A DNA stretch of 32,000 nt, from contig NZ_FUWK01000031.1 of the NCBI RefSeq assembly GCF_900167395.1, positions 1 through 32,000 on the forward strand, given 5' to 3'. Shown in pieces: positions 8,203-30,205 of this stretch. Source of the DNA: Nitrosomonas europaea (GTDB taxonomy: Bacteria > Pseudomonadota > Gammaproteobacteria > Burkholderiales > Nitrosomonadaceae). The notes under the pieces were generated by a model. That model was not told the origin of the DNA, searched no databases, and saw only the letters and a list, made by a program, of their open reading frames with translations. Numbering within the stretch: position 1 is the first letter of the stretch; the number at the start of each line of letters is the position of its first letter. Both the position numbers and the translations under genes were made by a program.

Positions 8203-8242
8203 ACAGGAATAAATATCGTTTTATGGAAATAATTGTTCCTGT
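8203..8242. promoter_or_regulatory. candidate LysR-type operator in the pirin/LysR divergent region
   Basis: Inverted repeat ACAGGAA (8203-8209) / TTCCTGT (8236-8242) enclosing ATAAA-N6-TTTAT (8209-8224), a T-N11-A-like dyad. Confidence 0.3.
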
Positions 8243-8265
8243 ATTGGCAACAATTAGGAGGCGTT

Positions 8266-10188: not shown

Positions 10189-10289
10189 GGATAGGTTCTT
10201 TAAAACAAATTTTTGATAACCATGATCGAAATACCAACGATTCAATCATGACTAAAGAATCTGCTGAAGGCGGAGACAGCCTGCGGTGA

Positions 10290-11096
10290 TCAGGCCGCAG
10301 ACCGATTGAGAAAGTCAGTTTCGGAGTTGTGGCAATCACCCCGGGCAAGGGTTTCCACTGCCTTGCCGAAAGTGACCAGATCAGAACGCTCCAGCATGAC
10401 GCAGTTTTTGCCGGTACGCTGACAATAGCGTCTGACGGTGAAAAAATCCTCATGATTGATACAGTCAACCGGGCAAATGATGCTGTCTACACGAGCGAGC
10501 AGGGCAAGCAGGCATTCACTGTTATCCTGTGCACCGCCACGAAACACCATGAAATGTCCCCCGGCAGCTTCAATCAACTGATGGTAATTCGGATAGAGTG
10601 CAGCACGCCCACCGATACACAGGACAGACTGGCCCGCCAGATGATGACTGCTTTTCAGACGATCAATGGCCAGATAAGCATGATATTGATGCGGCAGGCC
10701 TGTTCTGATCCAGCGTAAATCCTCGTCATCAGATACTTGGGGGAGATGTGTGTCAGTACGGCTGTCGATCTGAACTTCAGTGTGAATAGAGTTTGCAGGT
10801 GAACGCCGGGTTGTATTCGCGGAAACAGTACCAGGCAAGGCCATACGGACCAGGTGATAAAGGTGCTTCAGCCGTGATTCCAGCTCTCGCCCCAGTTTCA
10901 GTGTGCGTTGTTTGTAGTGATGGAAAAGCGAATTGCAGAGGATTTCATTCTGATAGATTCCGGACAGTTTACCGGGATGGAGTTGCGCACCCTGATATGC
11001 CGGCTCCAGTACTGTTCTTTGGAAGAATTTCATGATCGATTCCGTATCAGAAAAAAGGCTGGCTTGCCCGGGAGGAGGGGGCTGGCTTGCCGTCAC
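10290..11096 (-). CDS. DUF2325-like domain protein (short paralog); start uncertain (11096 or 11033)
   Basis: The C-terminal block SVLCIGGRAALYPNYHQLIEAAGGHFMVFRGG...VDSIICPVDCINHEDFFTVRRYCQRTGKNCVMLERSDLVTF aligns with the C-terminus of the 15530-16849 product. It fits my recollection of Pfam DUF2325. Confidence 0.7.
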   Translation of the reverse strand: MTASQPPPPGQASLFSDTESIMKFFQRTVLEPAYQGAQLHPGKLSGIYQNEILCNSLFHHYKQRTLKLGRELESRLKHLYHLVRMALPGTVSANTTRRSPANSIHTEVQIDSRTDTHLPQVSDDEDLRWIRTGLPHQYHAYLAIDRLKSSHHLAGQSVLCIGGRAALYPNYHQLIEAAGGHFMVFRGGAQDNSECLLALLARVDSIICPVDCINHEDFFTVRRYCQRTGKNCVMLERSDLVTFGKAVETLARGDCHNSETDFLNRSAA

Positions 11097-11409: not shown

Positions 11410-11428
11410 GAGAATGATTATCATTATA
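11410..11428 (-). promoter_or_regulatory. Fur box candidate upstream of hemP
   Basis: GAGAATGATTATCATTATA matches 16/19 positions of the consensus GATAATGATAATCATTATC. It sits in the 119-nt gap between the heme receptor stop and the hemP start. Confidence 0.6.
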
Positions 11429-15450: not shown

Positions 15451-15529
15451 ATTTCCTCCGGGTTGTGAATCGTAAAATGTATTGATGGATAAGGGTTCGT
15501 CTGTCATGCAGGCAGACTGCGCCGTAGTG

Positions 15530-16849
15530 TTATGTCGTGGTTTCAACTGTATCGACGGGAGAACTGTTGATACTGGCCTGGCCTGATGTGATTTTTGTCA
15601 GTGCTGCTGCAAAGCTGGAAACACCGGTACCCTTGAACAGCAGGCAGGGTTTATGCCCCAGCCGGCAAAGCCTTTTGACCTGATAGTAAGCGGCGTGACT
15701 GACGTAATCAGTCGGGCAGATCACTGCTGCAGCGCCATAGATCATTTCCGGCAAGCGCGAAAGTGCATCTTCCTGGCCGCCATCATGGTGTGATAATTTG
15801 AGGCCAAGCTGTCTGGCAAGTGTGCGGTATTGCGGCAGCAGCGTGGACCGGCCGCCTACGCACAGAATGCACTCGTAAGCAGCCATTTTCGTTTCGGTTG
15901 TATCCGCTGTTTCTGTATCTGTGGTGCTGCCAGAATTGAGGGTCAGCAGCAGATTTTCCAGTGTATCCCGCTCGACGCGAAGGGTATCGCGTTCGTGATA
16001 GAGCTCGGTCAGGTTGTGGCAGGCATTTTTGAGTGATTGCTTGAGATCATCGGCCTGTGCTGCTTTGATCTGCAGCTGCTCGTTTTCCACCGTTAGTTGC
16101 ATCAGGCGCTGACCCATTCGCAGTATGGCCTGGCCTGATTCCAGTGTTTCCAGCCGTTGGCGGGTGGTCTCGCTTTCTCGCCGGGATTGCTGCAACTGCT
16201 TGATTTCAGCCGCGGCCTGTTGCAGTTGCTGGCGCAGGCGCGATTCGGTCTGTACGTGCTTCTCTCTGATCTGTTCCAGTTGCCCGGCCAGTTCCTTCAG
16301 CATTTGTTCTGCCTGGTTGAGCCGGTGCTGCGTGGCTGACAGCTCGGCAACCGCTTCATGCATGTGCATGTGAACCCTGTCATGGATCTGCTCTCTGCCT
16401 TCGGAGCTGATCCGTTTGTGGGTGAGTGCTGCCCATAATGGACCGGCTATTCTTTCGTTGGTAAAACAGGTTTCCCAAAGCGCCAGCACCTCGCTGTCGG
16501 TTTTGGCGGCGTCGAACTGTTTAATGTGGCTTTCGTACAATCTGTCCAGATATTTATGAATCGTTTCCGATACGACGTTTCTGGAGGTTACGCGGCAGAC
16601 TGCTTCAACGTGCAGATCGTGCGCATTGTTTATCGAAGCTTTGAAATGAAAGCGTTTGGCAAAACGCTCGAGATCCGAGGCGGGCAGACAAAGGCCGATG
16701 ACAGGACAGTGATAGGTTCTGCTCAGTTCCCAGATTTTTGAACGCTTCACCGGGGGAGAAGGGGAATCGGTTACCATAATCTCGGGCGATCCATCTCCTG
16801 CTAATAAAGCATCGATTCCCGACTGTCGCAGAATGGCAGGTGCATGCAT
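15530..16849 (-). CDS. DUF2325-like domain protein (long paralog) with a central coiled coil
   Basis: GAGGAGA SD upstream of the ATG at 16849 (MHAPAILRQ). N-terminal HCPVIGLCLP block. Long Q/E/L/R-rich heptad region (LNQAEQMLKELAGQLEQIREKH...). C-terminal CILCVGGRSTLLPQYRTLARQLGLKLSHHDGG...VICPTDYVSHAAYYQVKRLCRLGHKPCLLFKGTGVSSF. Confidence 0.7.
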   Translation of the reverse strand: MHAPAILRQSGIDALLAGDGSPEIMVTDSPSPPVKRSKIWELSRTYHCPVIGLCLPASDLERFAKRFHFKASINNAHDLHVEAVCRVTSRNVVSETIHKYLDRLYESHIKQFDAAKTDSEVLALWETCFTNERIAGPLWAALTHKRISSEGREQIHDRVHMHMHEAVAELSATQHRLNQAEQMLKELAGQLEQIREKHVQTESRLRQQLQQAAAEIKQLQQSRRESETTRQRLETLESGQAILRMGQRLMQLTVENEQLQIKAAQADDLKQSLKNACHNLTELYHERDTLRVERDTLENLLLTLNSGSTTDTETADTTETKMAAYECILCVGGRSTLLPQYRTLARQLGLKLSHHDGGQEDALSRLPEMIYGAAAVICPTDYVSHAAYYQVKRLCRLGHKPCLLFKGTGVSSFAAALTKITSGQASINSSPVDTVETTT

Positions 16850-16915
16850 ACGGTATCTCCTCGTGGTGAAAATATCAGTCTGGATCAGACAGAATGGATT
16901 GCATTTAATACTAAT

Positions 16916-16934
16916 AATAACAATTATCATTAAC
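16916..16934 (-). promoter_or_regulatory. weaker Fur box candidate in the divergent region upstream of the long DUF2325-like gene
   Basis: AATAACAATTATCATTAAC matches 14/19 positions of the Fur consensus. It lies 67-85 nt upstream of the ATG at 16849. Confidence 0.4.
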
Positions 16935-17004
16935 GTAATCAATTGTGTTGTGTATTGCAGCCGATTCTGCATGAATCATGTGGAGCTTCATTTGTACGGC
17001 GAGG

Positions 17005-17021
17005 TGCGACAATTTGTCGCA
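17005..17021 (+). promoter_or_regulatory. 17-bp perfect palindromic operator TGCGACAA-T-TTGTCGCA (copy 1 of 3)
   Basis: Perfect 8-1-8 dyad immediately followed by TTTCCA (17022-27), a 17-nt spacer and TATTCT (17045-50). It ends 48 nt before the propeller gene ATG at 17070. Confidence 0.6.
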
Positions 17022-17069
17022 TTTCCATCCTTTTTGGAATCGGTTATTCTCCGAATTTTTGCGTGAACC

Positions 17070-18311
17070 ATGAAGAAGTCGACCTATTCTTTCCCCACGC
17101 TGGCCGGATTCTTTCTCACACTCGCTTCTGTGGTTGCAATCGCAGCCGGGCCAGGTACCGGCGACCCAACTCAGCAACCGTCTGTCATGCAAGCCTCAAA
17201 GTCCCCAAAGACCGCACTTGCGGTGGGAGTAACACTGGATCAGGAAGGGCAGTTGTGGCTGGCAAAAGTGATTGATCAGCGCTTGCTGGTTTCCAGATCA
17301 GAAGACGATGGCAAGCATTTTTCCGAATCAGTGACGGTTACTCCTGTGCCGGAAAACATAGGCAATGATGGCGAAAATCGTCCCAAGATCCAGGTGGCAC
17401 GTGATGGCACCGTGCTGGTCACCTGGACGGAGCTGCTGGCGGAAAAATATGCCGGAAATATAAAGTTCTCGCGTTCGACCGATTCAGGTCGGACGTTCTC
17501 AGAGCCAATCGTTCTGAACGATGATGGCCGTGTGACCAGTCACCGCTTCGATTCCCTGGCAATCGACGGAAAAGGAAGGGTGGTGGTGGCCTGGCTGGAT
17601 GCCAGAGATCGTGATGCAGCGAGGGAAAAAGGGGAGGAGTTCAAGGGGGTCTCACTCTACAGCAGTCAGTCGTTCGACAATGGCGCGCACTTTGAGCCAA
17701 ACCGGCAAATTCATCAGCATACCTGCGAATGCTGCCGGACTGCGCTTACCTGGACCAGCGAGGGGCCGGTCGTGCTGCTGCGAAATATTTTCGGCACCAA
17801 TACCCGTGATTTTGCCGTGGCCAGCCTGGATAAAGTGGAAGAAGGTGTCAGAAGAGTCACCCGCGATGAGTGGCAGATCGACGCCTGCCCGCACAACGGT
17901 GGCAGTCTTGCGACAGATGGCAGGGGGCAATTGCATCTGACCTGGTTCACCAGCGGCACCGCTGCACAGGGGCAGTTCTATAAACGGATCAGCGGCAACC
18001 AGGAATCGGAACCCATGGCGCTGGGTGATATGGATGCGCAGCCCAACCATGCTGCAGTGGTGGCGCATGGTGAAACCGTCATCCTCACCTGGCGCGAATT
18101 TGACGGAAACGTGTATTCCGCAAAGATGATGTTTTCGAATGACGGTGGCGAAACCTGGAGTGAGCCATGGCGCCTGATGTTGTCTGCCGGCGCAAACGAT
18201 TACCCGGTACCACTCATCAGTGACAGTAAAGCTCTGGTTGTATGGAATACCGAAAATGAGGGTTTGCGGGTTTTGTCCGTTGAAAGAGTCATCAACCGAT
18301 CCGACGGCTGA
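17070..18311 (+). CDS. secreted BNR/Asp-box repeat beta-propeller (sialidase-fold-like) protein with a conserved CxCC...CPH motif
   Basis: Signal peptide MKKSTYSFPTLAGFFLTLASVVAIAA. Asp-box motifs SEDDGKHF, STDSGRTF, SFDNGAHF, SNDGGETW. HTCECCR and DACPHNGG are conserved in the paralog at 28146-29384. Confidence 0.8.
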   Translation: MKKSTYSFPTLAGFFLTLASVVAIAAGPGTGDPTQQPSVMQASKSPKTALAVGVTLDQEGQLWLAKVIDQRLLVSRSEDDGKHFSESVTVTPVPENIGNDGENRPKIQVARDGTVLVTWTELLAEKYAGNIKFSRSTDSGRTFSEPIVLNDDGRVTSHRFDSLAIDGKGRVVVAWLDARDRDAAREKGEEFKGVSLYSSQSFDNGAHFEPNRQIHQHTCECCRTALTWTSEGPVVLLRNIFGTNTRDFAVASLDKVEEGVRRVTRDEWQIDACPHNGGSLATDGRGQLHLTWFTSGTAAQGQFYKRISGNQESEPMALGDMDAQPNHAAVVAHGETVILTWREFDGNVYSAKMMFSNDGGETWSEPWRLMLSAGANDYPVPLISDSKALVVWNTENEGLRVLSVERVINRSDG

Positions 18312-18419: not shown

Positions 18420-20972
18420 ATGAAGCAGTTCCCTCTGGCACTGATTGGCCTGCTTTGCGCCTCATCAGCCTGGGCAGCTCAAGATGTCGAACAACAGAAA
18501 CAGTTTTCCCGCAAAAATCTTTCAACACAGGCAGACAACAGTTCAGACGGAATCCGGGTATCAGGCGCAAACGGGGAGCACGCAGGGGAGCAGTTGGCGC
18601 AAGCGGCGGACGAACAGGTGCAAACCGGTAAATCGAGCAATAGTGACAACCTGAATGAACAGAAAGAGAAGGATAGTGGTGAGCCGGCTGGCCAGAATGA
18701 AACTGTTTTCAGGGAAATGGTAATTACAGGTGAAATAGAGCGGGATTCGCACTTTACTTCGCCTTCGATGCGCGTAACCCGGGCGCAGGTCGAACAGCAG
18801 AATGCGCAAACTACCGAAGAAGTGCTCAAATACATGCCCAGCCTGCAAATACGTCAGCGCTACGTGGGCGATCCGAATGGTGTGTTGGGGATTCGCGGAG
18901 CCGATATGTTTTCAACTGCGCGCAGCATGGTTTATGCCGATGGTCTGCCGTTGCACAACTTTCTGCAGGCTTCTTTCAATGGTGCGCCGCGCTGGTCGCT
19001 GGTCGGTCCTAACGAAATCGACTCGGTTGATGTCGTTTATGGCCCTTTCTCGGCCGAGTACAGCGGCAACTCGATAGGGGGCGTTGCCAATATCAGAACG
19101 CGCATGCCGCACAAGCAGGAATTTTACTTTGAAGGCAGCCTGTTCATTCAGCCCTACAAGAATTACGGGGAGGATAAAGGAACATTCATTGGTGACCGGC
19201 AGTATTTTTCCTACGGCAACAGGATTCAGGACAAGTTTACGGTGTTCCTGGCTTACAACCGGCTGGAGGCTCAGGGTCAGCCAATGTCTTATTTTATTGA
19301 TAATACCGGGTTGTCCAACGTGCCTGGAGGAACACCGGTGACGGGGGGTATCAGGACACCGGATACGCGCGGTACACCCAGTATCATTTATGGTGATACC
19401 GGTCCCGAAAAAGTGAATACTCACTTGTTCAAGGGTAAATTCGGGTACGACATCACTTCCGATCTGCAGGCGTTGTTTACCGTGGCGTATGAAGAGCGTA
19501 CCCGCAACCAGAACCATCCGAGCAACTACCTGTATACGGCGAACGGGGATTATTTCTGGGGAGGGAATGCGCCTACCTGTAATTCGGTTGCCACCTGTTC
19601 GACTCCGGGTAATGCTTCTCTGGATGGCACACGCTTCGATGTGGTGCGCAGTGGTTTCGGTGAAAGTCGTGACAAGCGTGAGACGCTGAATCTGGGTTTG
19701 TCGCTGCGCGGTGCGCTGACGCCCGACTGGGATGTCGATACCACATTCAGCTATTTCGATGTGTTGAAGGATATTCGTGCGACGGCGTTTTTCAATCATG
19801 CCGATCCGGGCAATACCGGTGCCGGGCAATTGCAGGATTTCCGCAAATTCAACTGGTGGAATTACGATCTCAAGCTGAGTACGCCCATGCTGCTGGGTTA
19901 CGACAAACTGTCGTTTCTGGCCGGATACCATTTTGACCAGTACAACCTCAGTTTCCGGCAATATAGCCTGACCAGTTATGAAGATCTGACCCGGGGTGCA
20001 TTGCAGGCCAACCGCAATAATGATGGCCGCACATCGACTCATGCGATCTTTGCCCAATCCATGTTCCGCTTCATGCCGGACTGGGATATTACCGCCGGTG
20101 TGCGTCAGGAATGGTGGGAAGCAAGCAAGGGAGTCGCCTCCAATGTGGCCGTGCCCGATCGCACCGAAACAGCCACTTCTCCGAAGGTTTCACTGGGGTA
20201 TGAGCCTGGACAGTGGAAATTCCGCTATTCCTTCGGGCGTGCGCACCGTTTCCCGGTGATTGCAGAGCTTTTTCAGTCACTTGGTACACCTACCAGTATT
20301 CTGGTTGCGAATGCGACGCTCAAACCTGAAAATGGCGTGCATCATAATTTTATGATGGAGTACGGGTTACCGAAGGGTTATGTTCGTGTCAACGTATTTC
20401 GGGATGACATCAAGGACGCCATCCGCCAGATCACTTCCGCCTCGGGAGCACTTACAACCAGCGCTTTCCAGAATATCGGTGAAGTTGGTACAACCGGTGT
20501 GGAGCTGATCTTCGAACAGCGAAATATTCTGGGCTCACGGTTCGATTTTATGTTCAACGGTACCTGGATGAACTCAAAAGTGGAAGACGGGCCGGTCGTG
20601 AGATTTACCGAATCAACCGGCGTGCCTGCCAACTACAGTCTGACCGGGAAACAGGTCATTCGTCTGCCACACTGGCGAGTCAATGTTTTCGGTACTTACC
20701 ATGTGACGGATGCCTGGGATGTTTCCCTGTCCGGCCGCTATACCAGCGATTCCTATAATGATCCTGATAACAGGGACTATAAGAACAACGTATTCGGTGC
20801 CCAGAGCGATTTCTTCTTCATGGATTTCAAGACCAGCTACCGGTATCGGTTCAACAACGGGCTGAAAAGCCGATTCTCATTCGGTATCAGCAACCTCAAC
20901 AACGACAAGGCCTGGGTATTTCATCCCTATCCGCAGCGTACCTATCTGCTCGAAGCTGCGTTCAGTTATTGA
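18420..20972 (+). CDS. TonB-dependent outer-membrane receptor with a long low-complexity N-terminal extension
   Basis: 850 aa. Signal peptide ending SSAWA. About 75 aa of Q/E/N/S/G-rich sequence, then plug motifs (VLKYMPSLQIRQR, GIRGA, VYADGLPL, VDVVYGPFSAEYSGNSIGGV) and a barrel ending AAFSY. Confidence 0.9.
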   Translation: MKQFPLALIGLLCASSAWAAQDVEQQKQFSRKNLSTQADNSSDGIRVSGANGEHAGEQLAQAADEQVQTGKSSNSDNLNEQKEKDSGEPAGQNETVFREMVITGEIERDSHFTSPSMRVTRAQVEQQNAQTTEEVLKYMPSLQIRQRYVGDPNGVLGIRGADMFSTARSMVYADGLPLHNFLQASFNGAPRWSLVGPNEIDSVDVVYGPFSAEYSGNSIGGVANIRTRMPHKQEFYFEGSLFIQPYKNYGEDKGTFIGDRQYFSYGNRIQDKFTVFLAYNRLEAQGQPMSYFIDNTGLSNVPGGTPVTGGIRTPDTRGTPSIIYGDTGPEKVNTHLFKGKFGYDITSDLQALFTVAYEERTRNQNHPSNYLYTANGDYFWGGNAPTCNSVATCSTPGNASLDGTRFDVVRSGFGESRDKRETLNLGLSLRGALTPDWDVDTTFSYFDVLKDIRATAFFNHADPGNTGAGQLQDFRKFNWWNYDLKLSTPMLLGYDKLSFLAGYHFDQYNLSFRQYSLTSYEDLTRGALQANRNNDGRTSTHAIFAQSMFRFMPDWDITAGVRQEWWEASKGVASNVAVPDRTETATSPKVSLGYEPGQWKFRYSFGRAHRFPVIAELFQSLGTPTSILVANATLKPENGVHHNFMMEYGLPKGYVRVNVFRDDIKDAIRQITSASGALTTSAFQNIGEVGTTGVELIFEQRNILGSRFDFMFNGTWMNSKVEDGPVVRFTESTGVPANYSLTGKQVIRLPHWRVNVFGTYHVTDAWDVSLSGRYTSDSYNDPDNRDYKNNVFGAQSDFFFMDFKTSYRYRFNNGLKSRFSFGISNLNNDKAWVFHPYPQRTYLLEAAFSY

Positions 20973-23486: not shown

Positions 23487-23503
23487 TGCGACAATTTGTC
23501 ACA
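23487..23503 (+). promoter_or_regulatory. 17-bp palindromic operator (copy 2 of 3; one mismatch, TGCGACAATTTGTCACA)
   Basis: Immediately followed by TTGTTA (23504-09), a 17-nt spacer and TATGAT (23527-32), upstream of the TBDR gene. Confidence 0.6.
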
Positions 23504-23647
23504 TTGTTATGCCCTTTCTCCCGCTTTATGATGGGTGCCCTGCAGTAACTGCAATCACTTTAAGGGTTTCATAACAGGGATAAAAACATGAAGGGAACAA
23601 AAAGGTTTGAGCAATCGCGACAACATCTGCTCAAGGCTGGGGATGCC

Positions 23648-25711
23648 ATGATCAGAAAACCGCTGGCGGTTGCGATGGTGGGTGTGCTGGCGGGCATGAC
23701 ATCGGTATGGGCGCAGGCAGAAAGTAAAAAGGAACCGGTGCAACTGGAAACAATCGAGGTCGTGGCATCCGGGCAGGGGTCGCTTACGGTTCCAACGCTG
23801 GTTGAGGCGCAGCATGAAATGCGCAAAATCCCGGGCGGAGCAAATATCATCGACAGCGAATCTTATGCCAATGGCCGGGGTTCGACACTGCAGGATGCGC
23901 TGGGGTATTCGCCGGGAGTGTTTGTTCAATCCCGTTTCGGTGCCGAGGAAGCGCGTCTGTCAATTCGCGGTTCCGGCATCCAGCGTTTCTTTCACTTGCG
24001 CGGCATCAAGATTCTGCAGGATGGTTCGCGGGTGAATCTGGCTGATGGTGGCGCGGATTTTCAGGTGATCGAGCCACTGGCAGCACGCTATATCGAAGTT
24101 TATCGGGGTGCCAATGCATTGCAGTATGGATCGACCACGCTGGGTGGTGCGATCAATTTCGTCACGCCCACCGGCTACGATGCTGAACGTTTCCGCGCAC
24201 GTGGTGAGGCAGGCAGCTTTGGTTATAACCGCCTGATGCTTTCTTCCGGTGGTGTGCATGGTTCTCTGGATTATTTTGCCAGTGTTTCCCGCTACAGTCA
24301 GGATGGTTTCCGTGACTGGTCGGAGCAGGAAAACTGGCGCATGTTCAGCAATGCCGGGTATCGAATCACGCCCGATCTGGAAACCCGTTTTTACCTGACC
24401 TATACCAAAACCAATTCACAATTGCCAGGCGAGCTGACCAAAGCAGAACTGAAAGACAACCCGAAGCAGGCAAATTTCTTTAACAGCAATATAGCGCGGT
24501 ACAAGCGGGATTTTGATTTGATCCGCGTGGCCAATCGTACTGTGATGAAATTGGGTGAGGCCCAGCAACTGGAATTTTCCGCATTCTATGCGCATAAAAA
24601 AGTATGGCACCCGATTTATGTGGTGATGGAGCAGCCTTCGCATGATTACGGCCTTGGGTTGCGCTATATCAACGAAATGCCGATTGCCGGCTGGCGTAAC
24701 CGGTTTGTGGCCGGTTTCGAGCCAAGCTGGGGCAAGGTGATGGATAACCAGTTCGTTAATATCAATGGTGAGGCTGGTCCGCGAATTCACAAATATGATC
24801 AGGATGTCAGCAGTTATACGGTGTATGGAGAGAATCAGTTTTACCTGCTGCCGGAACTTGCACTGGTGGTGGGTGCCCAGTACACCAACATGACACTCAA
24901 ACAGAAAGATCTGCATACGGGTGATCCGCGGCAGAAGAAAAACTACGAACGCTTCACCCCCAAGGCAGGACTCATCTATGACCTGAATCCGGAAATTCAA
25001 TTCTTCACCAACGTCAGTACCAGTTTCGAGCCACCCAGTTTTTCCGAGCTGGCCAGTTGGCAGGCGACACCGGTACTGGCCAGTGCCCAGCGCGCACTGA
25101 CCTTCGAAGTGGGAAGCCGGGGCCGTTTTGGTATCGCCGAATGGGATGTTGCATTTTATCGCTCACATGTGCGCAATGAATTGCTTGCCCGCGTGGATCC
25201 AGTGTCCCGTTTCCCGATAGGAATGGTCAATGCGGATAAAACCGTGCATCAGGGAGTGGAATTGGGTCTGGATATGGAACTGGCAAAAATGCTTTACCTG
25301 CGCCAGATGTATACATTCAGCGATTTCAAGTTTGATGGCGACCCGCTTTTCGGAAACAACCAGCTGGCCGGTATTCCGCGCCATTTCTACAAGGCGGAGC
25401 TGCTCTATCGCCATCCTGCCGGCTATTATGCCGGTCCGAACGTGGAATGGTCACCCGAGAAGTATTATGTGGATCATGCCAATACGTTGTCTGTCGATAC
25501 CTATGCGCTGCTTGGATTCAAGCTGGGTAAGCGCAACAAAACCGGCTTTTCCTGGTTTGTCGAGGGGCGTAACCTGACTAACCAGAAATATGCGGCGACG
25601 GTTTCCGTAACCGACATCGCGGGGGTTGGTGCCTTTGGTGGCGCAAACTCGGCCTTGTTCTTCCCGGGAGATGGCCGCTCCTTCTTTGCTGGTCTGGAGT
25701 ATCGGATGTAG
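23648..25711 (+). CDS. TonB-dependent outer-membrane receptor (tandem paralog 1); alternative upstream in-frame ATG at 23588
   Basis: GGGGA SD upstream of the ATG at 23648, giving the signal peptide MIRKPLAVAMVGVLAGMTSVWAQA. Plug motifs LETIEVV, LSIRGSG, RGIKILQDG, EVYRGANALQYGSTTLGGAINFV. Barrel ends GLEYRM. Confidence 0.9.
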   Translation: MIRKPLAVAMVGVLAGMTSVWAQAESKKEPVQLETIEVVASGQGSLTVPTLVEAQHEMRKIPGGANIIDSESYANGRGSTLQDALGYSPGVFVQSRFGAEEARLSIRGSGIQRFFHLRGIKILQDGSRVNLADGGADFQVIEPLAARYIEVYRGANALQYGSTTLGGAINFVTPTGYDAERFRARGEAGSFGYNRLMLSSGGVHGSLDYFASVSRYSQDGFRDWSEQENWRMFSNAGYRITPDLETRFYLTYTKTNSQLPGELTKAELKDNPKQANFFNSNIARYKRDFDLIRVANRTVMKLGEAQQLEFSAFYAHKKVWHPIYVVMEQPSHDYGLGLRYINEMPIAGWRNRFVAGFEPSWGKVMDNQFVNINGEAGPRIHKYDQDVSSYTVYGENQFYLLPELALVVGAQYTNMTLKQKDLHTGDPRQKKNYERFTPKAGLIYDLNPEIQFFTNVSTSFEPPSFSELASWQATPVLASAQRALTFEVGSRGRFGIAEWDVAFYRSHVRNELLARVDPVSRFPIGMVNADKTVHQGVELGLDMELAKMLYLRQMYTFSDFKFDGDPLFGNNQLAGIPRHFYKAELLYRHPAGYYAGPNVEWSPEKYYVDHANTLSVDTYALLGFKLGKRNKTGFSWFVEGRNLTNQKYAATVSVTDIAGVGAFGGANSALFFPGDGRSFFAGLEYRM

Positions 25712-25731
25712 GCGCATAAAATAGATCAAGG

Positions 25732-25759
25732 CGGCATACCCCGGTAATGAGGTATGCCG
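25732..25759 (+). terminator. possible terminator hairpin after TBDR paralog 1 (no U tract)
   Basis: CGGCATACC-N10-GGTATGCCG begins 20 nt after the stop codon. No T run follows it. Confidence 0.3.
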
Positions 25760-25847
25760 GGAAACCGAATAAAATGGTATTCCCTAGCTTTTTTTGCTGA
25801 TCCGAATTTCGAATTAACCCGTTAATCCGTTTGTTTTTTCTTCAAGG

Positions 25848-25864
25848 TGCGACAATTTGTCGCA
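25848..25864 (+). promoter_or_regulatory. 17-bp perfect palindromic operator TGCGACAA-T-TTGTCGCA (copy 3 of 3)
   Basis: Immediately followed by TTGTGA (25865-70), a 17-nt spacer and TAAGAT (25888-93), upstream of TBDR paralog 2. Confidence 0.6.
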
Positions 25865-25998
25865 TTGTGATGTCATTCTGCCAGGCTTAAGATTGGCAGC
25901 GTGCAGTAATTGCCAATACTAATAATTCCAGAGGGAAGAAAATGAAGGAAAAGAAGGTTAAACAAGCTGGGCTTTATGAGTCATCGGGTGGAGAAATC

Positions 25999-28068
25999 AT
26001 GGCCCGGAAGCCGCTTGTCATTGTGCTGGCAGGTGTATTGGCAGCTATGGCAGCGCCATTGGCGCAAGCTCATGAGGTTGACGAGCCAGTACAGCTTGAA
26101 ACAATAAAAGTGACTACATCTAAGGATGATTTACCTCTTACTGTGCCAAGTCTGCCGGAAGTGCAACAGAAAATGCGTCAGATTCCAGGGGGCGCGAATG
26201 TGATTGACAGCGAATCTTATGCTACCGGCCGTGCCTCGACGTTGCAGGATGCATTGGGTTATTCACCGGGTGTGTTTGTTCAACCTCGTTTTGGTGCTGA
26301 AGAAGCACGCCTGTCAATTCGTGGTTCCGGTATTCAGCGTACTTTCCATATGCGCGGTATCAAACTGTTGCAGGATGGCTCCCGGCTGAATCTGGCCGAT
26401 GGCGGAGGGGATTTTCAGGCAATCGAGCCGCTGGCCGCACGCTATATCGAGGTATACCGGGGAGGTAATGCGCTGCAGTTTGGATCGACCACACTGGGTG
26501 GTGCGATCAATTTCGTTACCCCTACCGGTTATGATGCCGAACGTTTCCGTGCGCGTGGTGAGGCAGGCAGTTTTGGTTATAACCGTCTGATGCTCTCTTC
26601 CGGCGGTGTGCATGGCTCGCTGGATTATTTTGCCAGCGTTTCCCGCTACAGCCAGGATGGTTTCCGTGACTGGTCAGAGCAGGAAAACTGGCGCATGTTC
26701 AGTAATGTGGGTTATCGCGTCAACTCCGATCTGGAAACCCGTTTTTATCTCACTTATACCAAAACTGATTCACAATTGCCGGGTAACCTGACCAAGGCAC
26801 AGTTGAGAGCCAATCCCAAACAAGCGAATGCGGTTAGTCTGGCTGGTCGGCAGAAGCGGGATTTTGATCTGATCCGGGTGGCCAATCGCACTGTGCTTAA
26901 GCTGGGAAATAGCCAGCAACTGGAATTCTCCGCATTCTATTCACACAAGAAGTTGTGGCATCCGATCTTTCAGGTGCTGGATCAGCCATCGCATGATTAT
27001 GGCCTGGGGTTGCGCTATATAAATGAGATGCCGATTGCTGGCTGGCGCAACCGTTTTGTAGTTGGTTTCGAGCCGAGCTGGGGCACTGTTATGGATAATC
27101 GCTTCTTCAATAATGGTGGTAGAGCGGGTGCACGTACAGCCAAGTTTGATCAGAGTGCCAGCACTTATGACGTTTATGCGGAAGATCAGCTGTACGTATT
27201 GCCAGAACTGTCACTGGTTGTGGGTGCGCAGTACAGTTATACGACACGTAAACAAAAGGATCTGTTTGGAGCAGGCGCCCAGGATAGAAGCAAGAACTAC
27301 CAGCGCTTCACTCCCAAAGCAGGATTGATTTATGAGCTGAATCCGCATATTCAGTTTTTCAGTAACGTCAGTACCAGTTTTGAGCCTCCCAGTTTTTCCG
27401 AACTGACTGCCGGGCCGGTGGTTGCTCCGGTATTTGCAAAAGCTCAACGTGCGATCACATTTGAAGTTGGTAGCCGAGGTCATTTCGGTATAGCCGAATG
27501 GGATGTGGCGCTGTATCGGGCGCATGTACGTAATGAGTTGCTTGCCCGAGTGGATCCTATTACCAGTTCTTCACTGGGTACGGTCAATGCGGATAAAACA
27601 GTGCATCAGGGGGTTGAACTGGGCCTTGATATCGAGCTGGTGAAAATGTTCTATTTGCGCCAGATGTACCTGTTCAATGATTTCAAATTCGATGGGGATG
27701 CTTCTTTCGGTAATAATCAGTTAGCCGGCATCCCACGTCATTTCTACAAAGCGGAACTGACTTACCGTCATGCTGATGGATACTACGCCGGTCCGAATGT
27801 AGAATGGTCACCTCAGAAATACTATGTGGACCATGCCAATACGGTATATGCCAATTCCTATGCGCTGCTGGGTTTCAAAATCGGTAAACGGAGTAAGAGT
27901 GGATTTTCCTGGTTTGCAGAGGCACGTAACCTGACTGATCAGAAATACGCAGCTACTACAGGCGTAACAGATGTGGTTAAGTACAATAATGCGGGTGTTC
28001 TTCAGGATCAATTTTTCCTTCCAGGAGATGGACGCTCTTTCTTCGCGGGTCTCGAATATCGGATGTAG
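25999..28068 (+). CDS. TonB-dependent outer-membrane receptor (tandem paralog 2); alternative upstream in-frame ATG at 25942
   Basis: GGAGA SD upstream of the ATG at 25999, giving the signal peptide MARKPLVIVLAGVLAAMAAPLAQA. Collinear with and highly similar to the 23648-25711 product. Ends GLEYRM. Confidence 0.9.
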   Translation: MARKPLVIVLAGVLAAMAAPLAQAHEVDEPVQLETIKVTTSKDDLPLTVPSLPEVQQKMRQIPGGANVIDSESYATGRASTLQDALGYSPGVFVQPRFGAEEARLSIRGSGIQRTFHMRGIKLLQDGSRLNLADGGGDFQAIEPLAARYIEVYRGGNALQFGSTTLGGAINFVTPTGYDAERFRARGEAGSFGYNRLMLSSGGVHGSLDYFASVSRYSQDGFRDWSEQENWRMFSNVGYRVNSDLETRFYLTYTKTDSQLPGNLTKAQLRANPKQANAVSLAGRQKRDFDLIRVANRTVLKLGNSQQLEFSAFYSHKKLWHPIFQVLDQPSHDYGLGLRYINEMPIAGWRNRFVVGFEPSWGTVMDNRFFNNGGRAGARTAKFDQSASTYDVYAEDQLYVLPELSLVVGAQYSYTTRKQKDLFGAGAQDRSKNYQRFTPKAGLIYELNPHIQFFSNVSTSFEPPSFSELTAGPVVAPVFAKAQRAITFEVGSRGHFGIAEWDVALYRAHVRNELLARVDPITSSSLGTVNADKTVHQGVELGLDIELVKMFYLRQMYLFNDFKFDGDASFGNNQLAGIPRHFYKAELTYRHADGYYAGPNVEWSPQKYYVDHANTVYANSYALLGFKIGKRSKSGFSWFAEARNLTDQKYAATTGVTDVVKYNNAGVLQDQFFLPGDGRSFFAGLEYRM

Positions 28069-28145
28069 AAATAATGATGGGAGTGGTGAGCTCATAAACA
28101 AGCCATCTTCAGGTTTGATTGGCGATTAATTTCAAGGGATCGACG

Positions 28146-29384
28146 ATGTCAGTAAAACATTTCATTACAGCCGTTTCACTTGCTATGGTTTCCACAGTAA
28201 TTCCCCTGACCGTGACTGCTGAACAACATGCGCATGATGCTAAATCAGCAAAGCCCGGCCATGATATGAATAAAATGTGGGCGGAAATGCGCACAAGAGC
28301 AGTCGGCATGGCTGTTTCCGTAGCGGCTGATGAAAAAGGGAAATTGTGGCTGGTTCGTATGCAGGATGGCCATATCCGGGTAAGTCATTCGGAAGATGGC
28401 GGCAAGCATTTTTCTGAAGGTGTAACGGTAAACCCGCAACCTGAAGCGATTCTTGCAGAAAACCAGAACCGGCCGAAGATCGCGGTGCGTAACGGGGTGA
28501 TCGCAGTAACCTGGGTACAGGCGCTGCCGAAGGTGTTTGCCGGGAATATCCGCTTTGCCCGTTCTGTCGATGGTGGTCGTACTTTTTCCGAGCCGGTAAC
28601 TGTGAACGATGATCAGGGCGAAATCAGCCATGGTTTCAGTGCCTTGACACTGGGTGACAATGGCCGTGTGACATTGACCTGGTTCGACGGGCGTGAACGT
28701 GATGCAGCTGATAAGGGTGGGCAGAAGTATGTTGGCACCACGGTTTACTATGCAACGTCGGAAGACGGCGGAGCGAGTTTTTCTGCGAATCGCAAGTTGG
28801 CTGACCATGCCTGCGAATGCTGCAGAATCGGCATGACGCTCGATTCTGATGGGGTACCGGTTGTGTTCTGGCGGCATGTGTTCGAGGGCAGCATGCGTGA
28901 TTTCGCGCTGGCACGGCTGGATTCGCAACCCAAGGTGTTGCGGGCCAGTGAGGATGGTTGGGAAATCAATGCCTGTCCTCATCATGGCGGCGACATTGCA
29001 GTGGATGAAGCCGGTAGCCGCCATCTGGCGTGGTTTACCGGGAATCCGCAGAATCCCGGATTGTTTTACCGGCGTGCTGACGGTGAGAATATGACCGCAC
29101 CGCACGCATTTGGTGACCTTGATTTTCAGCCGGGTTACCCAGCTGTATTTGCGTATGGAAAGAAGGTTTATCTGGTCTGGCGCGAATTTGATGGCAATAA
29201 TTATCAATTGATGGCCTCCGTTTCGGCTGATCGTGGCGATACCTGGTCAGCAGCTCGTGCTGTGGCAACGACCGGTGGTGCAGCCGACCTGCCAGTATTT
29301 GTAGTCGGTGCACAGAAACCACTCGTCGTGTGGAACAGTGCCAGAGATGGAGTGCGCTTCTTTAATGCAGAGGGGGATTTATGA
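28146..29384 (+). CDS. secreted BNR/Asp-box repeat beta-propeller protein with the CxCC...CPH motif (paralog of 17070-18311)
   Basis: Starts MSVKHFITAVSLAMVSTVIPLTVTA at the ATG at 28146 (the track start at 28119 is a TTG). Asp boxes SEDGGKHF, SVDGGRTF, SEDGGASF, SADRGDTW. HACECCR and NACPHHGG. Confidence 0.8.
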   Translation: MSVKHFITAVSLAMVSTVIPLTVTAEQHAHDAKSAKPGHDMNKMWAEMRTRAVGMAVSVAADEKGKLWLVRMQDGHIRVSHSEDGGKHFSEGVTVNPQPEAILAENQNRPKIAVRNGVIAVTWVQALPKVFAGNIRFARSVDGGRTFSEPVTVNDDQGEISHGFSALTLGDNGRVTLTWFDGRERDAADKGGQKYVGTTVYYATSEDGGASFSANRKLADHACECCRIGMTLDSDGVPVVFWRHVFEGSMRDFALARLDSQPKVLRASEDGWEINACPHHGGDIAVDEAGSRHLAWFTGNPQNPGLFYRRADGENMTAPHAFGDLDFQPGYPAVFAYGKKVYLVWREFDGNNYQLMASVSADRGDTWSAARAVATTGGAADLPVFVVGAQKPLVVWNSARDGVRFFNAEGDL

Positions 29385-29878
29385 TGCGTCGTTTACTGTT
29401 TATCTGGCTGTTGACGATAGCCGGGGTTGCATCGGCGACCGAGGGTGTACGTCCGTTTGTACTCGGAAGTATGACGCAGATTCAGGAAGAGCATGCAGGC
29501 AAACCTTTCGTACTGTTTCTCTGGTCGCTGACATGTACTTACTGTCCAACTGAACTGAAAATGCTTGGTGAATTCAAGCAGCAGCATCCTGATCTGAATC
29601 TGGTGCTGATTGCGGCGGATACGCCGGATGATGAGCCGGAGATCGTTTCTCATCTTGCTGATTACGGGTTGAACAAGGTCGAGCGGTGGGTGTTTGCCGA
29701 GGATATGCCGGAACGCCTGCGTTTTGAGATCGACCGGCGCTGGTATGGCGAGGTGCCGCGCACCTATTTTTATGATCAGAGCCATCAGCGTGAAGCCAAG
29801 ACCGGGCTGGTCGGCCAGGAATATGTCAAGAGTTGGCTGGCGCGTGTCGGTATGGATGCTTCGTCCGCAAGCAAGTGA
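29381..29878 (+). CDS. periplasmic thioredoxin-fold thiol:disulfide oxidoreductase (TlpA/ResA-like)
   Basis: Signal peptide MMRRLLFIWLLTIAGVASA. WSLTCTYCP CxxC active site (29534-29545). ATGA overlap with the propeller gene stop. Confidence 0.8.
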   Translation: MMRRLLFIWLLTIAGVASATEGVRPFVLGSMTQIQEEHAGKPFVLFLWSLTCTYCPTELKMLGEFKQQHPDLNLVLIAADTPDDEPEIVSHLADYGLNKVERWVFAEDMPERLRFEIDRRWYGEVPRTYFYDQSHQREAKTGLVGQEYVKSWLARVGMDASSASK

Positions 29879-29961: not shown

Positions 29962-30003
29962 TCAGCCGGTGGATAAAGAGTATCTCCGGCTGATTTATCT
30001 TTT
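29962..30003 (+). terminator. candidate rho-independent terminator after the thioredoxin-like gene
   Basis: TCAGCCGG-N16-CCGGCTGA (29962-29993) followed by TTTATCTTTTT. Confidence 0.5.
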
Positions 30004-30205
30004 TCCACCAGGCAAATCGTATCTGTTTGCTACTGCACAGGAACATGTGAGCAACCCGTGAGGCATGGTCGAGCCGCATGATCAGTTCCGGTAGTAACAG
30101 CTTGCTCTTTGGGGTTCATGCTTGTAATCTTTTTAACAGGATTGATCCTGCTCTTGTTGTGAGCAGGTAGTATTTGCCCTGAAATCTGATCACGCAGGAG
30201 GTATC

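Follow-up and report, generated by a model that had tools for sequence, protein, structure and literature searches.

A TonB-dependent receptor (TBDR), a secreted cysteine- and histidine-rich β-propeller and a dedicated thioredoxin-like partner form a widely conserved but undescribed outer-membrane uptake module in Nitrosomonas europaea. The module is apparently switched on by the respiratory redox sensor RegB/RegA, and its most plausible, although unproven, role is to supply copper to respiratory enzymes. The locus is located in a 32,000-nucleotide stretch of DNA, here called the window, which covers positions 1 to 32,000 of contig NZ_FUWK01000031.1 (assembly GCF_900167395.1).

Organization of the locus

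The features discussed below are the following:

17005-17021 (no strand assigned): RegA/RegR-type 17-bp palindrome, exact TGCGACAATTTGTCGCA, in front of propeller-1; it abuts TTTCCA (17022-17027), a 17-nt spacer and TATTCT (17045-17050)
17070-18311 (+): propeller-1, a secreted BNR-type paralog with CECCR and CPHNGG but no His-rich tail, followed by a TBDR rather than a thioredoxin gene
18420-20972 (+): 850-aa TonB-dependent receptor downstream of propeller-1, from a different TBDR clade
23487-23503 (no strand assigned): RegA/RegR-type palindrome with one mismatch, TGCGACAATTTGTCACA, in front of TBDR-A
23504-23532 (+): promoter-like TTGTTA-N17-TATGAT directly abutting the palindrome
23588-25711 (+): TBDR-A (Plug plus barrel), a lineage-specific tandem duplicate of TBDR-B, followed by a hairpin and T-run at about 25733-25795
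25848-25864 (no strand assigned): RegA/RegR-type palindrome, exact, in front of TBDR-B
25865-25893 (+): promoter-like TTGTGA-N17-TAAGAT directly abutting the palindrome, read from the sequence
25942-28068 (+): TBDR-B (Plug plus barrel), first gene of the TBDR-propeller-thioredoxin operon
28146-29384 (+): propeller-2, 412 aa, with a Sec signal peptide, a His/Met-rich tail (EQHAHDAKSAKPGHDMNKMW), C223-E-C225-C226 and C277-P-H279-H280
29381-29878 (+): secreted TlpA-like thioredoxin-fold protein of 165 aa, with a CTYC motif
29962-30004 (+): intrinsic terminator-like hairpin (29962-29993) plus T tract

The earlier note described two tandem receptor genes that each have their own palindrome and promoter, the second of which is followed by a propeller and a secreted CxxC thioredoxin-fold gene and closed by a hairpin, and all of these sequence observations were confirmed. 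The three palindromes in the window compare with 0.14 sites expected by chance, and each is followed immediately by a -35-like hexamer, a 17-nt spacer and a -10-like hexamer. The two receptors are 76% identical to each other, and TBDR-B does not match any characterized TBDR subfamily above cut-off. The stop of TBDR-B is separated by a gap of 77 nt from the ATG of propeller-2, which is preceded by AAGGGA. The propeller-2 product hits BNR_2 and is 43% identical to propeller-1. The start codon of the thioredoxin-like gene overlaps the propeller stop codon (ATGA), and its product contains a signal peptide but gives only a borderline AhpC-TSA/thioredoxin-fold hit. The terminal hairpin folds at -18.5 kcal/mol (z = -4.2) and is followed by UUUAUCUUUUU, while the hairpin and T-run after TBDR-A support the reading that TBDR-A is its own transcription unit.

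Conservation of the module

To learn whether this gene order is conserved, we compared 80 species-level loci. All propellers of the propeller-2 type with downstream DNA are followed by the thioredoxin gene, of which 72 were counted directly, while four apparent misses (L021, L058, L072 and L075 in our numbering of the loci) contain the gene according to the BLAST map. The only true exceptions are the Nitrosomonas propeller-1 paralogs. The stop/start junction overlaps in 69 of 72 loci, by 4 nt in 56 (ATGA type), by 1 nt in 12 (TAATG/TGATG type) and by 8 nt in one. Furthermore, the two proteins are naturally fused into one polypeptide in 21 of the 150 best family representatives (50% clusters). 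However, the link is very frequent rather than exclusive, since the thioredoxin family also occurs without an adjacent propeller in Nitrosospira, as the first gene of a TonB-ExbB-ExbD operon.

A TBDR is located directly upstream in 60 of 69 loci by strict criteria and in more according to BLAST, corresponding to about 90% of the loci. These receptors fall into at least four unrelated clades with less than 38% identity. TonB, ExbB and ExbD follow in about 31, 26 and 25 loci, respectively. The propeller carries four near-invariant cysteines, whereas the receptors, TonB, ExbB and ExbD are essentially cysteine-free, which makes the propeller the only plausible client of the thioredoxin within the module.

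The AF2 model of the propeller has a mean pLDDT of 90.5. The residues C223, C225, C226, C277, P278 and H279 are invariant in 58 sequences, and among 134 distant representatives CxCC is present in 125 and CP[HDE][HQN]G in 117. The spatial proximity of the four cysteines is inferred from topology only. The tails are enriched in His (5.7% against 3.4% in the body) and Met (3.3% against 1.3%), with motifs such as HDMHDHMH, HMHMGH and GMPGMPGMSGMGDMH, and about half of the closest 120 members begin with AXA|H-[ED]-[HQ]. However, such tails are frequent but not universal, since propeller-1 lacks one and distant members carry a Cys pair instead.

The palindrome and the RegB/RegA system

The palindrome TGCGACA-N3-TGTCGCA is conserved across beta- and gammaproteobacteria at a median distance of 78 nt upstream of the receptor start, with 104 sites in 1.3 Mb against about 9 in simulations. 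It abuts a weak -35 hexamer at fixed spacing, and a TT(C/G)…N17…TAnnAT layout follows in 47 of 60 sites. The core GCGACAATTTGTCGC matches the RegR box GNGRCRTTNNGNCGC at 14 of 15 positions and the Rhodobacter capsulatus RegA motif SSGNVRDNHYSNCSS at 15 of 15 (motifs quoted in PMC5506826). The same box precedes regB, a FixH-like-Sco1-PCuAC operon, a Sco-domain gene, clade II nosZ and TonB genes. The site had been taken simply as an operator in the earlier note, but its sequence and its position directly upstream of the -35 hexamer, which is activator geometry, suggest that it is most likely a RegA activator site and not a metal-repressor operator.

The regB/regA genes are not present in the window, but they are located within 10 kb in about 11 of the 80 loci. 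The best NCBIfam hit of the neighboring response regulator is ActR/PrrA/RegA. It also matches PDB 3RQI with E = 2e-49, a B. pseudomallei response regulator that we take to be its RegA homolog although the entry is not so named, as well as the PrrA DNA-binding domain 1UMQ. The best NCBIfam hit of the neighboring kinase is ActS/PrrB/RegB, and it carries GGxxNPF and the redox-box Cys (motif described in PMC8191878). However, the scores of the regulator and the kinase are below the NCBIfam equivalog cut-offs (202 against 250 and 233 against 350).

The position of the box upstream of the -35 hexamer agrees with what was found for RegA in At. ferrooxidans (PMC5506826), and Sco/SenC, PCuAC, nosZ and regB itself are classic members of the RegB/RegA (PrrBA, ActSR, RegSR, RoxSR) regulon. 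A RegA-dependent TBDR and tonB operon has also been reported in Methylomonas, but these genes belong to an iron/heme island, were not bound by RegA in ChIP and were judged to be indirect targets (PMC13274454). No published RegA regulon that we could find includes the propeller-thioredoxin pair, and the sharp 7-3-7 palindrome contrasts with the degenerate motifs reported for alphaproteobacteria. For Accumulibacter, no RegAB site had been identified (PMC6446978).

Candidate cargoes and related systems

We suggest that the locus is a RegB/RegA-activated, TonB-dependent acquisition module. What the comparisons show directly is a constant core, consisting of a periplasmic BNR-type β-propeller with a near-invariant CxCC…CPH(H) motif that is translationally coupled, or in some organisms fused, to a secreted TlpA-like CxxC thioredoxin, with an interchangeable receptor upstream, often a dedicated TonB-ExbB-ExbD set downstream, and in front a 17-bp palindrome that matches the RegA/RegR box and abuts the -35 hexamer. 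The mechanism is inferred from sequence alone, including RegA binding, transcription, metal binding and redox chemistry. In this view, RegB would phosphorylate RegA when the quinone pool becomes reduced or terminal heme-copper oxidase activity falls, and RegA would bind the palindrome, centered at about -44, and activate the weak promoters. The receptors would import the cargo into the periplasm, where the propeller would capture it with its His/Met-rich N-terminal tail and its Cys3-Cys-His site. The thioredoxin partner, re-reduced through a DsbD/CcdA-type membrane protein, would keep those cysteines reduced and possibly reduce the metal, and the cargo would stay in the periplasm for respiratory and nitrogen-cycle enzymes or be passed to Sco/PCuAC-type chaperones. 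We are highly confident that the module is conserved, nearly as confident in the direct partnership of the propeller and the thioredoxin, and consider RegA-type control to be likely, whereas copper as the cargo, imported as an ion or a chelate, and the explanation as a whole remain tentative.

The interpretation in the earlier note, that the cysteines of the propeller are the client of the thioredoxin and that the module may handle a thiophilic metal (Cu or Fe) or a redox-sensitive ligand, is thus partly supported, since the co-occurrence of the three families and the palindrome far beyond this genome, the overlapping junctions, the fusions and the distribution of cysteines agree with the partnership, while the evidence on the cargo is indirect. 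Copper is favored by the His/Met-rich tails, the CxCC…CPH(H) motif, the TlpA-like partner and the absence of an inner-membrane transporter from the module. No Fur box was found at or near the three palindromes (≤3 mismatches), although good Fur boxes occur elsewhere in the window. It is also known that loss of a heme-copper oxidase activates RoxSR output (PMC5492768). However, the receptors lack the Cys/Met/His site of the copper receptor OprC, and score highest, though below cut-off, against siderophore, heme and PqqU models.

The main rival cargo is iron, which we consider less likely. In this scenario, the receptors would import ferric chelates or heme-like compounds, and the propeller and thioredoxin would act as a thiol-driven periplasmic ferric reductase or Fe(II) chaperone that releases iron for a generic inner-membrane Fe(II) transporter such as Feo, with RegB/RegA raising the iron supply when the respiratory chain is over-reduced. 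Consistently, RegB/RegA controls a TBDR, a tonB-exbBD operon and, directly, feo in Methylomonas sp. DH-1, for which periplasmic Fe(III) reduction upstream of Feo has been argued (PMC13274454). The scores against siderophore and heme receptor models also agree with this reading, as does the location of the module next to Fur-box-associated genes in the window (a heme-type TBDR, a CbiX-like protein and DUF2325 proteins), and the lack of a dedicated inner-membrane transporter also fits the release of Fe(II) in the periplasm. Besides the lack of Fur boxes at the palindromes, the methionine-rich His/Met tails and a Cys-rich site are typical of copper sites and not of periplasmic iron proteins, the other box-bearing neighbors (Sco, PCuAC and nosZ) are copper-related, and no feo or ferritin genes recur in the 80 loci. 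It is also possible, although unlikely, that the propeller is a redox enzyme or binding protein for an imported organic, redox-sensitive ligand, such as a quinone-type cofactor like PQQ or a disulfide/persulfide compound, with the thioredoxin recycling its catalytic cysteines. PqqU is the top NCBIfam hit for TBDR-A and TBDR-B (154-155 bits), the propeller has many other invariant Arg, Asp, Glu, Trp and His residues, as an enzyme active site would, the vicinal Cys225-Cys226 recalls the vicinal disulfide of PQQ methanol dehydrogenase, and the regulator senses the quinone pool. However, the PqqU score is far below its cut-off of 1200, the other receptor clades do not prefer PqqU, Foldseek finds no quinoprotein or oxidoreductase among the best matches, and the tails point to a metal.

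Similarly unlikely is that the four cysteines form structural disulfides and that the thioredoxin-like protein is merely a dedicated isomerase or oxidase for folding of the propeller, in which case the cysteines would say nothing about the cargo. Periplasmic cysteines are normally oxidized by DsbA, a DsbC-like gene recurs in a few loci, and distant members carry an additional N-terminal Cys pair. However, TlpA-like proteins are reductants as a rule, and the family is named TlpA disulfide reductase in public sources. A DsbD_2/CcdA-type electron importer recurs next to the module in 9 loci, CxCC with an adjacent CPH(H) is an unusual pattern for purely structural disulfides, and the same thioredoxin family heads TonB operons that have no adjacent propeller. 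Least likely of all is the annotation at face value, namely that the propeller is an exo-alpha-sialidase or glycoside hydrolase acting on an imported glycan and that the palindrome is a Fur/Zur-type metal-repressor operator. Homologs are named “sialidase family protein”, “exo-alpha-sialidase” or “glycoside hydrolase” in public sources, there are Asp-box repeats in addition to the BNR_2 hit, and the best Foldseek matches are lectins, GH33/GH93 hydrolases and lyases. However, the Foldseek TM-scores are at most 0.58 with 10-16% identity, a PDB profile search aligned only Asp-box segments, out of register, at E >= 1e-4, and no NCBIfam family matches. No sugar transport or catabolism genes recur in the loci, the hosts are lithoautotrophs (Nitrosomonas, Gallionella, Sulfuricella and Thiobacillus), and the palindrome is GC-rich and matches RegA/RegR boxes rather than Fur/Zur boxes.

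The inferred role of the thioredoxin resembles that of TlpA with Sco/CoxB and of ScsB/ScsC with CueP, in which a secreted thioredoxin-fold reductase keeps the cysteines of a periplasmic copper-binding client reduced, with electrons supplied by a DsbD/CcdA-type membrane protein and a link to cuproenzyme supply. However, the putative client here is a β-propeller with no sequence relation to Sco, PCuAC or CueP and no SCO1 or PCuAC Pfam hit, and the pair is embedded in a TonB-dependent import operon. The OprC/NosA receptors likewise represent an outer-membrane TonB-dependent route proposed to supply copper to respiratory and denitrification enzymes, but the receptors of the module do not reach the TonB-copper model cut-off, and the best scores (112-125 against 472) belong to extra neighboring receptors. 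AztD is a secreted β-propeller with a flexible His-rich N-terminal segment that serves as a periplasmic zinc metallochaperone, but it belongs to a different propeller family and is not among the 50 best Foldseek matches. It works with an ABC-transporter binding protein, is under zinc control and is not known to have a cysteine site or thioredoxin partner. The GH33 sialidases and BNR/Asp-box propellers share the propeller fold with Asp-box repeats, which is the basis of the public annotation, but there is no detectable conservation of the catalytic apparatus, the family has its own Cys/His motifs, and its genomic context is TonB transport and redox genes rather than glycan use.

Gene organization and conservation of the module

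The open reading frames were listed and scanned against Pfam and NCBIfam, which gave the following gene order:
10290-11096 (minus strand), 268-aa DUF2325 protein
11503-13596 (minus strand), heme-type TonB-dependent receptor (TBDR)
13729-16972 (minus strand), operon for a 605-aa CbiX-like protein and a 480-aa coiled-coil/DUF2325 protein
17070-18311 (rightward), BNR-type propeller, here called propeller-1
18420-20972 (rightward), 850-aa TBDR
then a nucleotidyltransferase gene and an M18 aminopeptidase gene
23588-25711, TBDR-A
25942-28068, TBDR-B
28146-29384, BNR-type propeller, here called propeller-2
29381-29878, 165-aa thioredoxin-fold protein

Every statement on the sequence made in the earlier note was found to be correct. 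The palindrome TGCGACAATTTGTCGCA, described there in front of each of two tandem receptor genes, occurs at 23487 with one mismatch and at 25848, and also at 17005, giving three sites compared to 0.14 expected. TBDR-A and TBDR-B are 76% identical, the gap between TBDR-B and the propeller ATG is 77 nt, and the ATG of the thioredoxin gene overlaps the propeller TGA as ATGA. The hairpin at 29962-29993 folds at -18.5 kcal/mol (z = -4.2) and precedes a T tract. A hairpin with a T-run also follows TBDR-A, which therefore looks monocistronic, while TBDR-B, the propeller and the thioredoxin gene look like one operon. Close relatives have only one receptor gene in front of the propeller (two of the loci collected for comparison, L005 and L084), and TBDR-A is thus a recent tandem duplicate that took its promoter region with it. 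The two receptor leaders (23533-23587 and 25894-25941) share TGCAGTAAYTGC and a short hairpin before it, which is probably a trace of the duplication.

Both TBDR-A and TBDR-B contain the N-terminal plug domain (PF07715) and the barrel domain (PF00593) of TonB-dependent receptors. However, neither could be assigned to a characterized subfamily (PqqU, heme/hemoglobin, siderophore, B12, copper OprC/NosA or ZnuD), since the best NCBIfam hit was PqqU at 154-155 bits against a cut-off of 1200 and the other models were also below their cut-offs. The same holds for the receptors of the other clades.

To learn how widely the arrangement is conserved, which the earlier note had set as a test of its proposal, we searched for relatives of the propeller. 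The family has more than 1,100 close relatives, and a full profile search identified 1,036 clusters at 50% identity with E <= 1e-30. The nearest genomes are Nitrosomonas, with a propeller identity of 96% in a MAG and about 78% in N. eutropha. We collected 80 species-level loci (denoted by L numbers) from Nitrosomonas, Pseudomonadales MAGs, Dechloromonas/Azonexus/Azospira, Sulfuricella, Thiobacillus, Gallionella/Sideroxyarcus, Nitrotoga, Methylomirabilis and Nitrospirae, and mapped the proteins of the window onto their open reading frames. Every propeller of the propeller-2 type with enough downstream DNA is followed by the thioredoxin gene; 72 were counted directly and four more are visible in the protein mapping. 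The only exceptions are the Nitrosomonas propeller-1 paralogs, which are followed by a TBDR instead. The stop/start junction overlaps by 4 nt in 56, by 1 nt in 12 and by 8 nt in 1 of 72 loci, so that 69 of 72 overlap. Furthermore, 21 of the 150 best family representatives (P0245, P0250, P0258 and 18 others) are natural fusions of 520-650 aa, with the propeller (CECCR, CPHHG) at the N-terminus and the thioredoxin domain (WSLDCxxC … GELPR[ST]Y) at the C-terminus. Together with the conserved coupling, these gene fusions make a direct partnership very likely.

A TBDR gene lies directly upstream in 60 of 69 loci by strict criteria, and in more by BLAST. These receptors belong to at least four clades below 38% identity. 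The propeller-thioredoxin pair is therefore the constant part of the module, and the receptor is exchangeable. Genes for TonB, ExbB and ExbD follow the thioredoxin gene in roughly 31, 26 and 25 loci, respectively, while no inner-membrane permease or ABC transporter recurs in the loci examined. An MFS gene near the module in Dechloromonas was considered as a CcoA-like copper importer, but this was rejected because its product lacks the MxxxM/HxxxM motifs and looks like a NarK-type nitrate/nitrite transporter. A literature search on the palindrome, and on the combination of TBDR, BNR/sialidase and thioredoxin genes in Nitrosomonas or Dechloromonas, found no description of either the module or the palindrome.

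Sequence features of the propeller and the thioredoxin-like protein

The propeller has a Sec-type signal peptide and no lipobox, and it is modeled confidently as a propeller (pLDDT 90.5). It contains BNR repeats and a BNR_2 domain at 45 bits, and thereby shares the Asp-box propeller architecture of the GH33 sialidases. However, it has no close solved relative and matches no NCBIfam model. A profile search against PDB sequences aligned only about 100 residues, out of register, covering Asp-box segments of sialidases at E >= 1e-4, and a Foldseek search returned generic lectins, hydrolases and lyases with TM-scores of at most 0.58 and 10-16% identity. The catalytic residues of the sialidases (Arg triad with RIP motif, Asp and Glu/Tyr) could thus not be aligned, a conclusion that rests on the lack of detectable homology over the active-site segments rather than on a residue-level structural alignment. 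The public names “sialidase” and “glycoside hydrolase” rest on the repeat, not on the active site. Nor does either propeller in the window belong by sequence to the periplasmic copper chaperones Sco1/SenC or PCuAC, as neither gives a hit to PF02630 or PF04314; these families occur as separate neighboring genes in 6-7 related loci.

The invariant positions are C223, C225, C226, C277, P278 and H279, in addition to H162, H293 and several Arg, Asp, Glu and Trp residues. Among distant representatives, the CxCC motif is kept in 125 of 134 and the CP[HDE][HQN]G motif in 117 of 134. Both motifs follow the first (innermost) strand of two adjacent blades in the secondary structure of the model, from which we infer, without model coordinates for the four cysteines, that they may meet near the central axis. 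Between the signal peptide and the first blade lies a disordered tail that is enriched in His (5.7%, compared to 3.4% in the body) and Met (3.3%, compared to 1.3%). Examples are EQHAHDAKSAKPGHDM in this window, and HDMHDHMH…, HMHMGH, HSHASSMHMQMQHG and GMPGMPGMSGMGDMHGSTHH. In about half of the 120 closest members, AXA is followed by H-[ED]-[HQ], which would give a mature N-terminus with His at positions 1 and 3, although the rule used to place the cleavage site is crude and biased, and this is taken only as support. In many distant members, the His/Met-rich tail is replaced by a C-x6-10-(H)C motif before the first blade. The receptors, TonB, ExbB and ExbD, which were examined as alternative clients of the thioredoxin, have no conserved cysteines, and the propeller is the only candidate client inside the module.

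The thioredoxin-like protein is a TlpA-like periplasmic protein that contains a CTYC motif and a signal peptide, as read from the sequence. The CxxC is conserved in at least 90% of 71 orthologs. The protein has a borderline AhpC-TSA hit (26.4 bits against a cut-off of 26), its nearest solved relatives are YkuV and DsbF, and the family is named TlpA disulfide reductase in public sources. A gene for a DsbD_2/CcdA-type membrane protein is located next to the module in 9 loci, but not in the window. It belongs to a recurrent trio just upstream of, or near, the module (L065, 4715-7312; L042, 4781-7480; L036, 14297-16917; and 6-7 further loci), in which the gene for the DsbD_2 protein is preceded by those for an unknown exported and C-terminally anchored protein of about 300 aa without Pfam or NCBIfam hits and a NapH/MauN-like Fer4_5 membrane polyferredoxin. 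The presence of the DsbD_2 gene fits a reducing pathway but does not prove one. The trio may be an electron-input or metal-reductase unit. In Nitrosospira, the same thioredoxin family is the first gene of a TonB-ExbB-ExbD operon with no adjacent propeller or receptor (L085, 9793-12458, and L086; Nitrosospira multiformis ATCC 25196 and Nitrosospira sp. Nsp5). Its association is therefore with this TonB system as a whole.

A palindrome resembling the RegA/RegR box

The palindrome is conserved as TGCGACA-N3-TGTCGCA at a median of 78 nt upstream of the receptor start in most beta- and gammaproteobacterial loci. A total of 104 sites with at most two mismatches were identified in 1.3 Mb, compared to 6-12 in Markov simulations. 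Departures from symmetry are not compensatory between the half-sites, and the palindrome is therefore a protein site rather than an RNA hairpin. Consistently, there were no Rfam matches at gathering threshold anywhere in the window, and the folds of the two receptor leaders are not better than shuffles (z = -1.0 and -1.4), which argues against a riboswitch or other RNA element. In 47 of 60 sites, the palindrome is followed at once by TT(C/G)nnn and, exactly 17 nt later, by TAnnAT, so that the site occupies about -52 to -36, next to a weak -35 hexamer. This is the geometry of an activator. A sigma-54 promoter downstream of the palindrome, as expected for an NtrC-like enhancer, was rejected because no GG-N10-GC element was found in the leaders. 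The same palindrome and promoter layout (TTGCGA-N17-TATCAT) precede the thioredoxin-TonB operon in the two Nitrosospira loci.

The core GCGACAATTTGTCGC matches the B. japonicum RegR box GNGRCRTTNNGNCGC at 14 of 15 positions and the R. capsulatus RegA motif SSGNVRDNHYSNCSS at 15 of 15, with both motifs as quoted in PMC5506826, which also reports RegA binding upstream of the -35 box. In 16 loci, a 185-aa regulator with a receiver and a Fis-type HTH domain clustered with the module. After removal of a false member, which turned out to be NarL-type (L002), 9 carry the RegA signature HRRTLQR. RegB-type kinases occur in 8, with two further loci holding the kinase only. This makes about 11 of 80 loci within 10 kb, where well under one is expected by chance. 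The best NCBIfam hit of the regulator is ActR/PrrA/RegA, below the equivalog cut-off (202 bits against 250). The regulator also matches PDB 3RQI at 2e-49, a B. pseudomallei response regulator that we take to be its RegA homolog although the entry is not so named, and the PrrA DNA-binding domain 1UMQ. The best hit of the kinase is ActS/PrrB/RegB, also below cut-off (233 bits against 350), and it shows the quinone-site heptapeptide GGAENPF and the Cys of the redox box, as these features are described in PMC8191878. The regBA genes are not encoded in the 32-kb window.

The same box is located in front of regB itself (L015, L042), a FixH-like-Sco1-PCuAC operon (L036, 17491-19282), a gene for a long Sco-domain protein (L071, 13984-15137), clade II (Sec-type) nosZ (L079, 16008-18220) and TonB genes (L071, L028). 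All are plausible RegA targets, and the box could be used to map the RegA regulon in denitrifying Rhodocyclales. For Accumulibacter, a relative of several hosts of the module, no RegAB site had been identified (PMC6446978). In Methylomonas, a 2026 paper shows RegB/RegA-dependent expression of a TBDR, a tonB-exbBD operon and feo, but only feo was bound in ChIP, and the genes belong to an iron/heme island without the propeller (PMC13274454).

Candidate cargo and genomic surroundings

These results show a conserved gene arrangement, with its overlapping junctions and fusions, the conserved cysteine motifs, and a palindrome that matches published RegA/RegR motifs, whereas RegA binding and RegA-dependent expression, the reducing function of the thioredoxin and the nature of the cargo are inferred. 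In the most likely mechanism, a reduced quinone pool or falling heme-copper oxidase activity would activate RegB/RegA. Loss of cbb3-1 activates RoxSR output in P. aeruginosa (PMC5492768), and copper starvation is reported to do the same (Frangipani et al. 2008). RegA bound next to the -35 hexamer would then activate the receptor genes and the propeller-thioredoxin pair. The cargo would be delivered to the periplasm and caught there by the His/Met tail and the Cys/His site of the propeller, whose thiols would be kept reduced by the thioredoxin partner. The interpretation in the earlier note, that the propeller cysteines are the client of the thioredoxin and that the module may handle a thiophilic metal (Cu or Fe) or a redox-sensitive ligand, is thus partly supported, as the partnership is very likely while the cargo remains an inference.

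We tentatively favor copper as the cargo. Tails rich in both Met and His, and Cys-rich sites, are copper chemistry, TlpA-type reductases service copper chaperones, and the neighboring genes that carry the box are Sco, PCuAC and nosZ. There is no Fur box at these promoters although the window has them elsewhere, and a module without an inner-membrane transporter fits a metal whose clients face the periplasm. Although it is considered unlikely, iron is the main rival because of the precedent in Methylomonas and the siderophore/heme-like receptors. A non-metal redox ligand, a purely structural role for the cysteines and the sialidase annotation are less likely still.

A TonB-dependent receptor, a TlpA-like thioredoxin and a RegA box are each of a known type. 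What appears undescribed is the cysteine propeller family with its thioredoxin partner, which is obligatory apart from the Nitrosomonas propeller-1 paralogs and sometimes fused, its embedding in TonB uptake operons, and the inferred wiring of those operons to a respiratory redox sensor instead of a metal-sensing repressor. A more far-reaching possibility, which is doubtful on present evidence, is that RegB/RegA acts as the indirect copper-deficiency sensor of the cell and, when heme-copper oxidase activity falls, switches on a previously unrecognized TonB-dependent copper import route. The periplasmic acceptor of this route would be a new family of cysteine/histidine beta-propeller metallochaperone-reductases, serviced by or fused to a TlpA-like thioredoxin. 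Such a route would be widespread in nitrifiers, iron and sulfur oxidizers and denitrifying Rhodocyclales, and would feed AMO, NirK, NosZ and the terminal oxidases.

A conserved receptor-propeller-thioredoxin module putatively wired to the respiratory redox sensor offers a testable answer to the largely open question of how proteobacteria sense copper shortage and bring copper across the outer membrane for periplasmic and membrane cuproenzymes, and a handle on the maturation of N2O-relevant enzymes. This matters especially for ammonia oxidizers and denitrifiers, whose key enzymes (AMO, NirK, NosZ and heme-copper oxidases) depend on copper. The analysis also gives a sharp, transferable RegA-box consensus for beta- and gammaproteobacteria, where published motifs are degenerate or lacking, a corrected reading of more than a thousand “sialidase” annotations, and a new client/partner pair for TlpA-like reductases that is supported by gene fusions. 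If the cargo turns out to be iron or another cofactor, the link between quinone-pool sensing and TonB-dependent uptake would still be new physiology.

The possibility that the palindrome is a Fur or Zur operator was rejected, since a scan with the Fur consensus GATAATGATAATCATTATC identified no box at the three palindromes. The only strong box, with two mismatches and none expected by chance, is at 11410-11428, between the heme-type TBDR gene and the 268-aa DUF2325 gene. No RegA-type box with three or fewer mismatches lies near a 350-aa two-domain multicopper-oxidase-fold protein, NirK-like by domain content, which is located next to a LysR regulator and a pirin gene (9193-10245, minus strand, and 8233-9183, plus strand). 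A second Fur-box-like element (15/19, about 16912-16930) overlaps a promoter-like TTGATT-N17-TATTAT and belongs to the leftward operon upstream of the bona fide heme-type TBDR. The true start of the DUF2325 gene in this operon is probably the ATG at 16848, not 16972, and the operon shares its intergenic region (16849-17069), back to back, with the RegA-type box of propeller-1. The 605-aa protein encoded by the operon has two CbiX/chelatase-like regions, and a chelatase-like protein next to a heme receptor might act in heme iron extraction.
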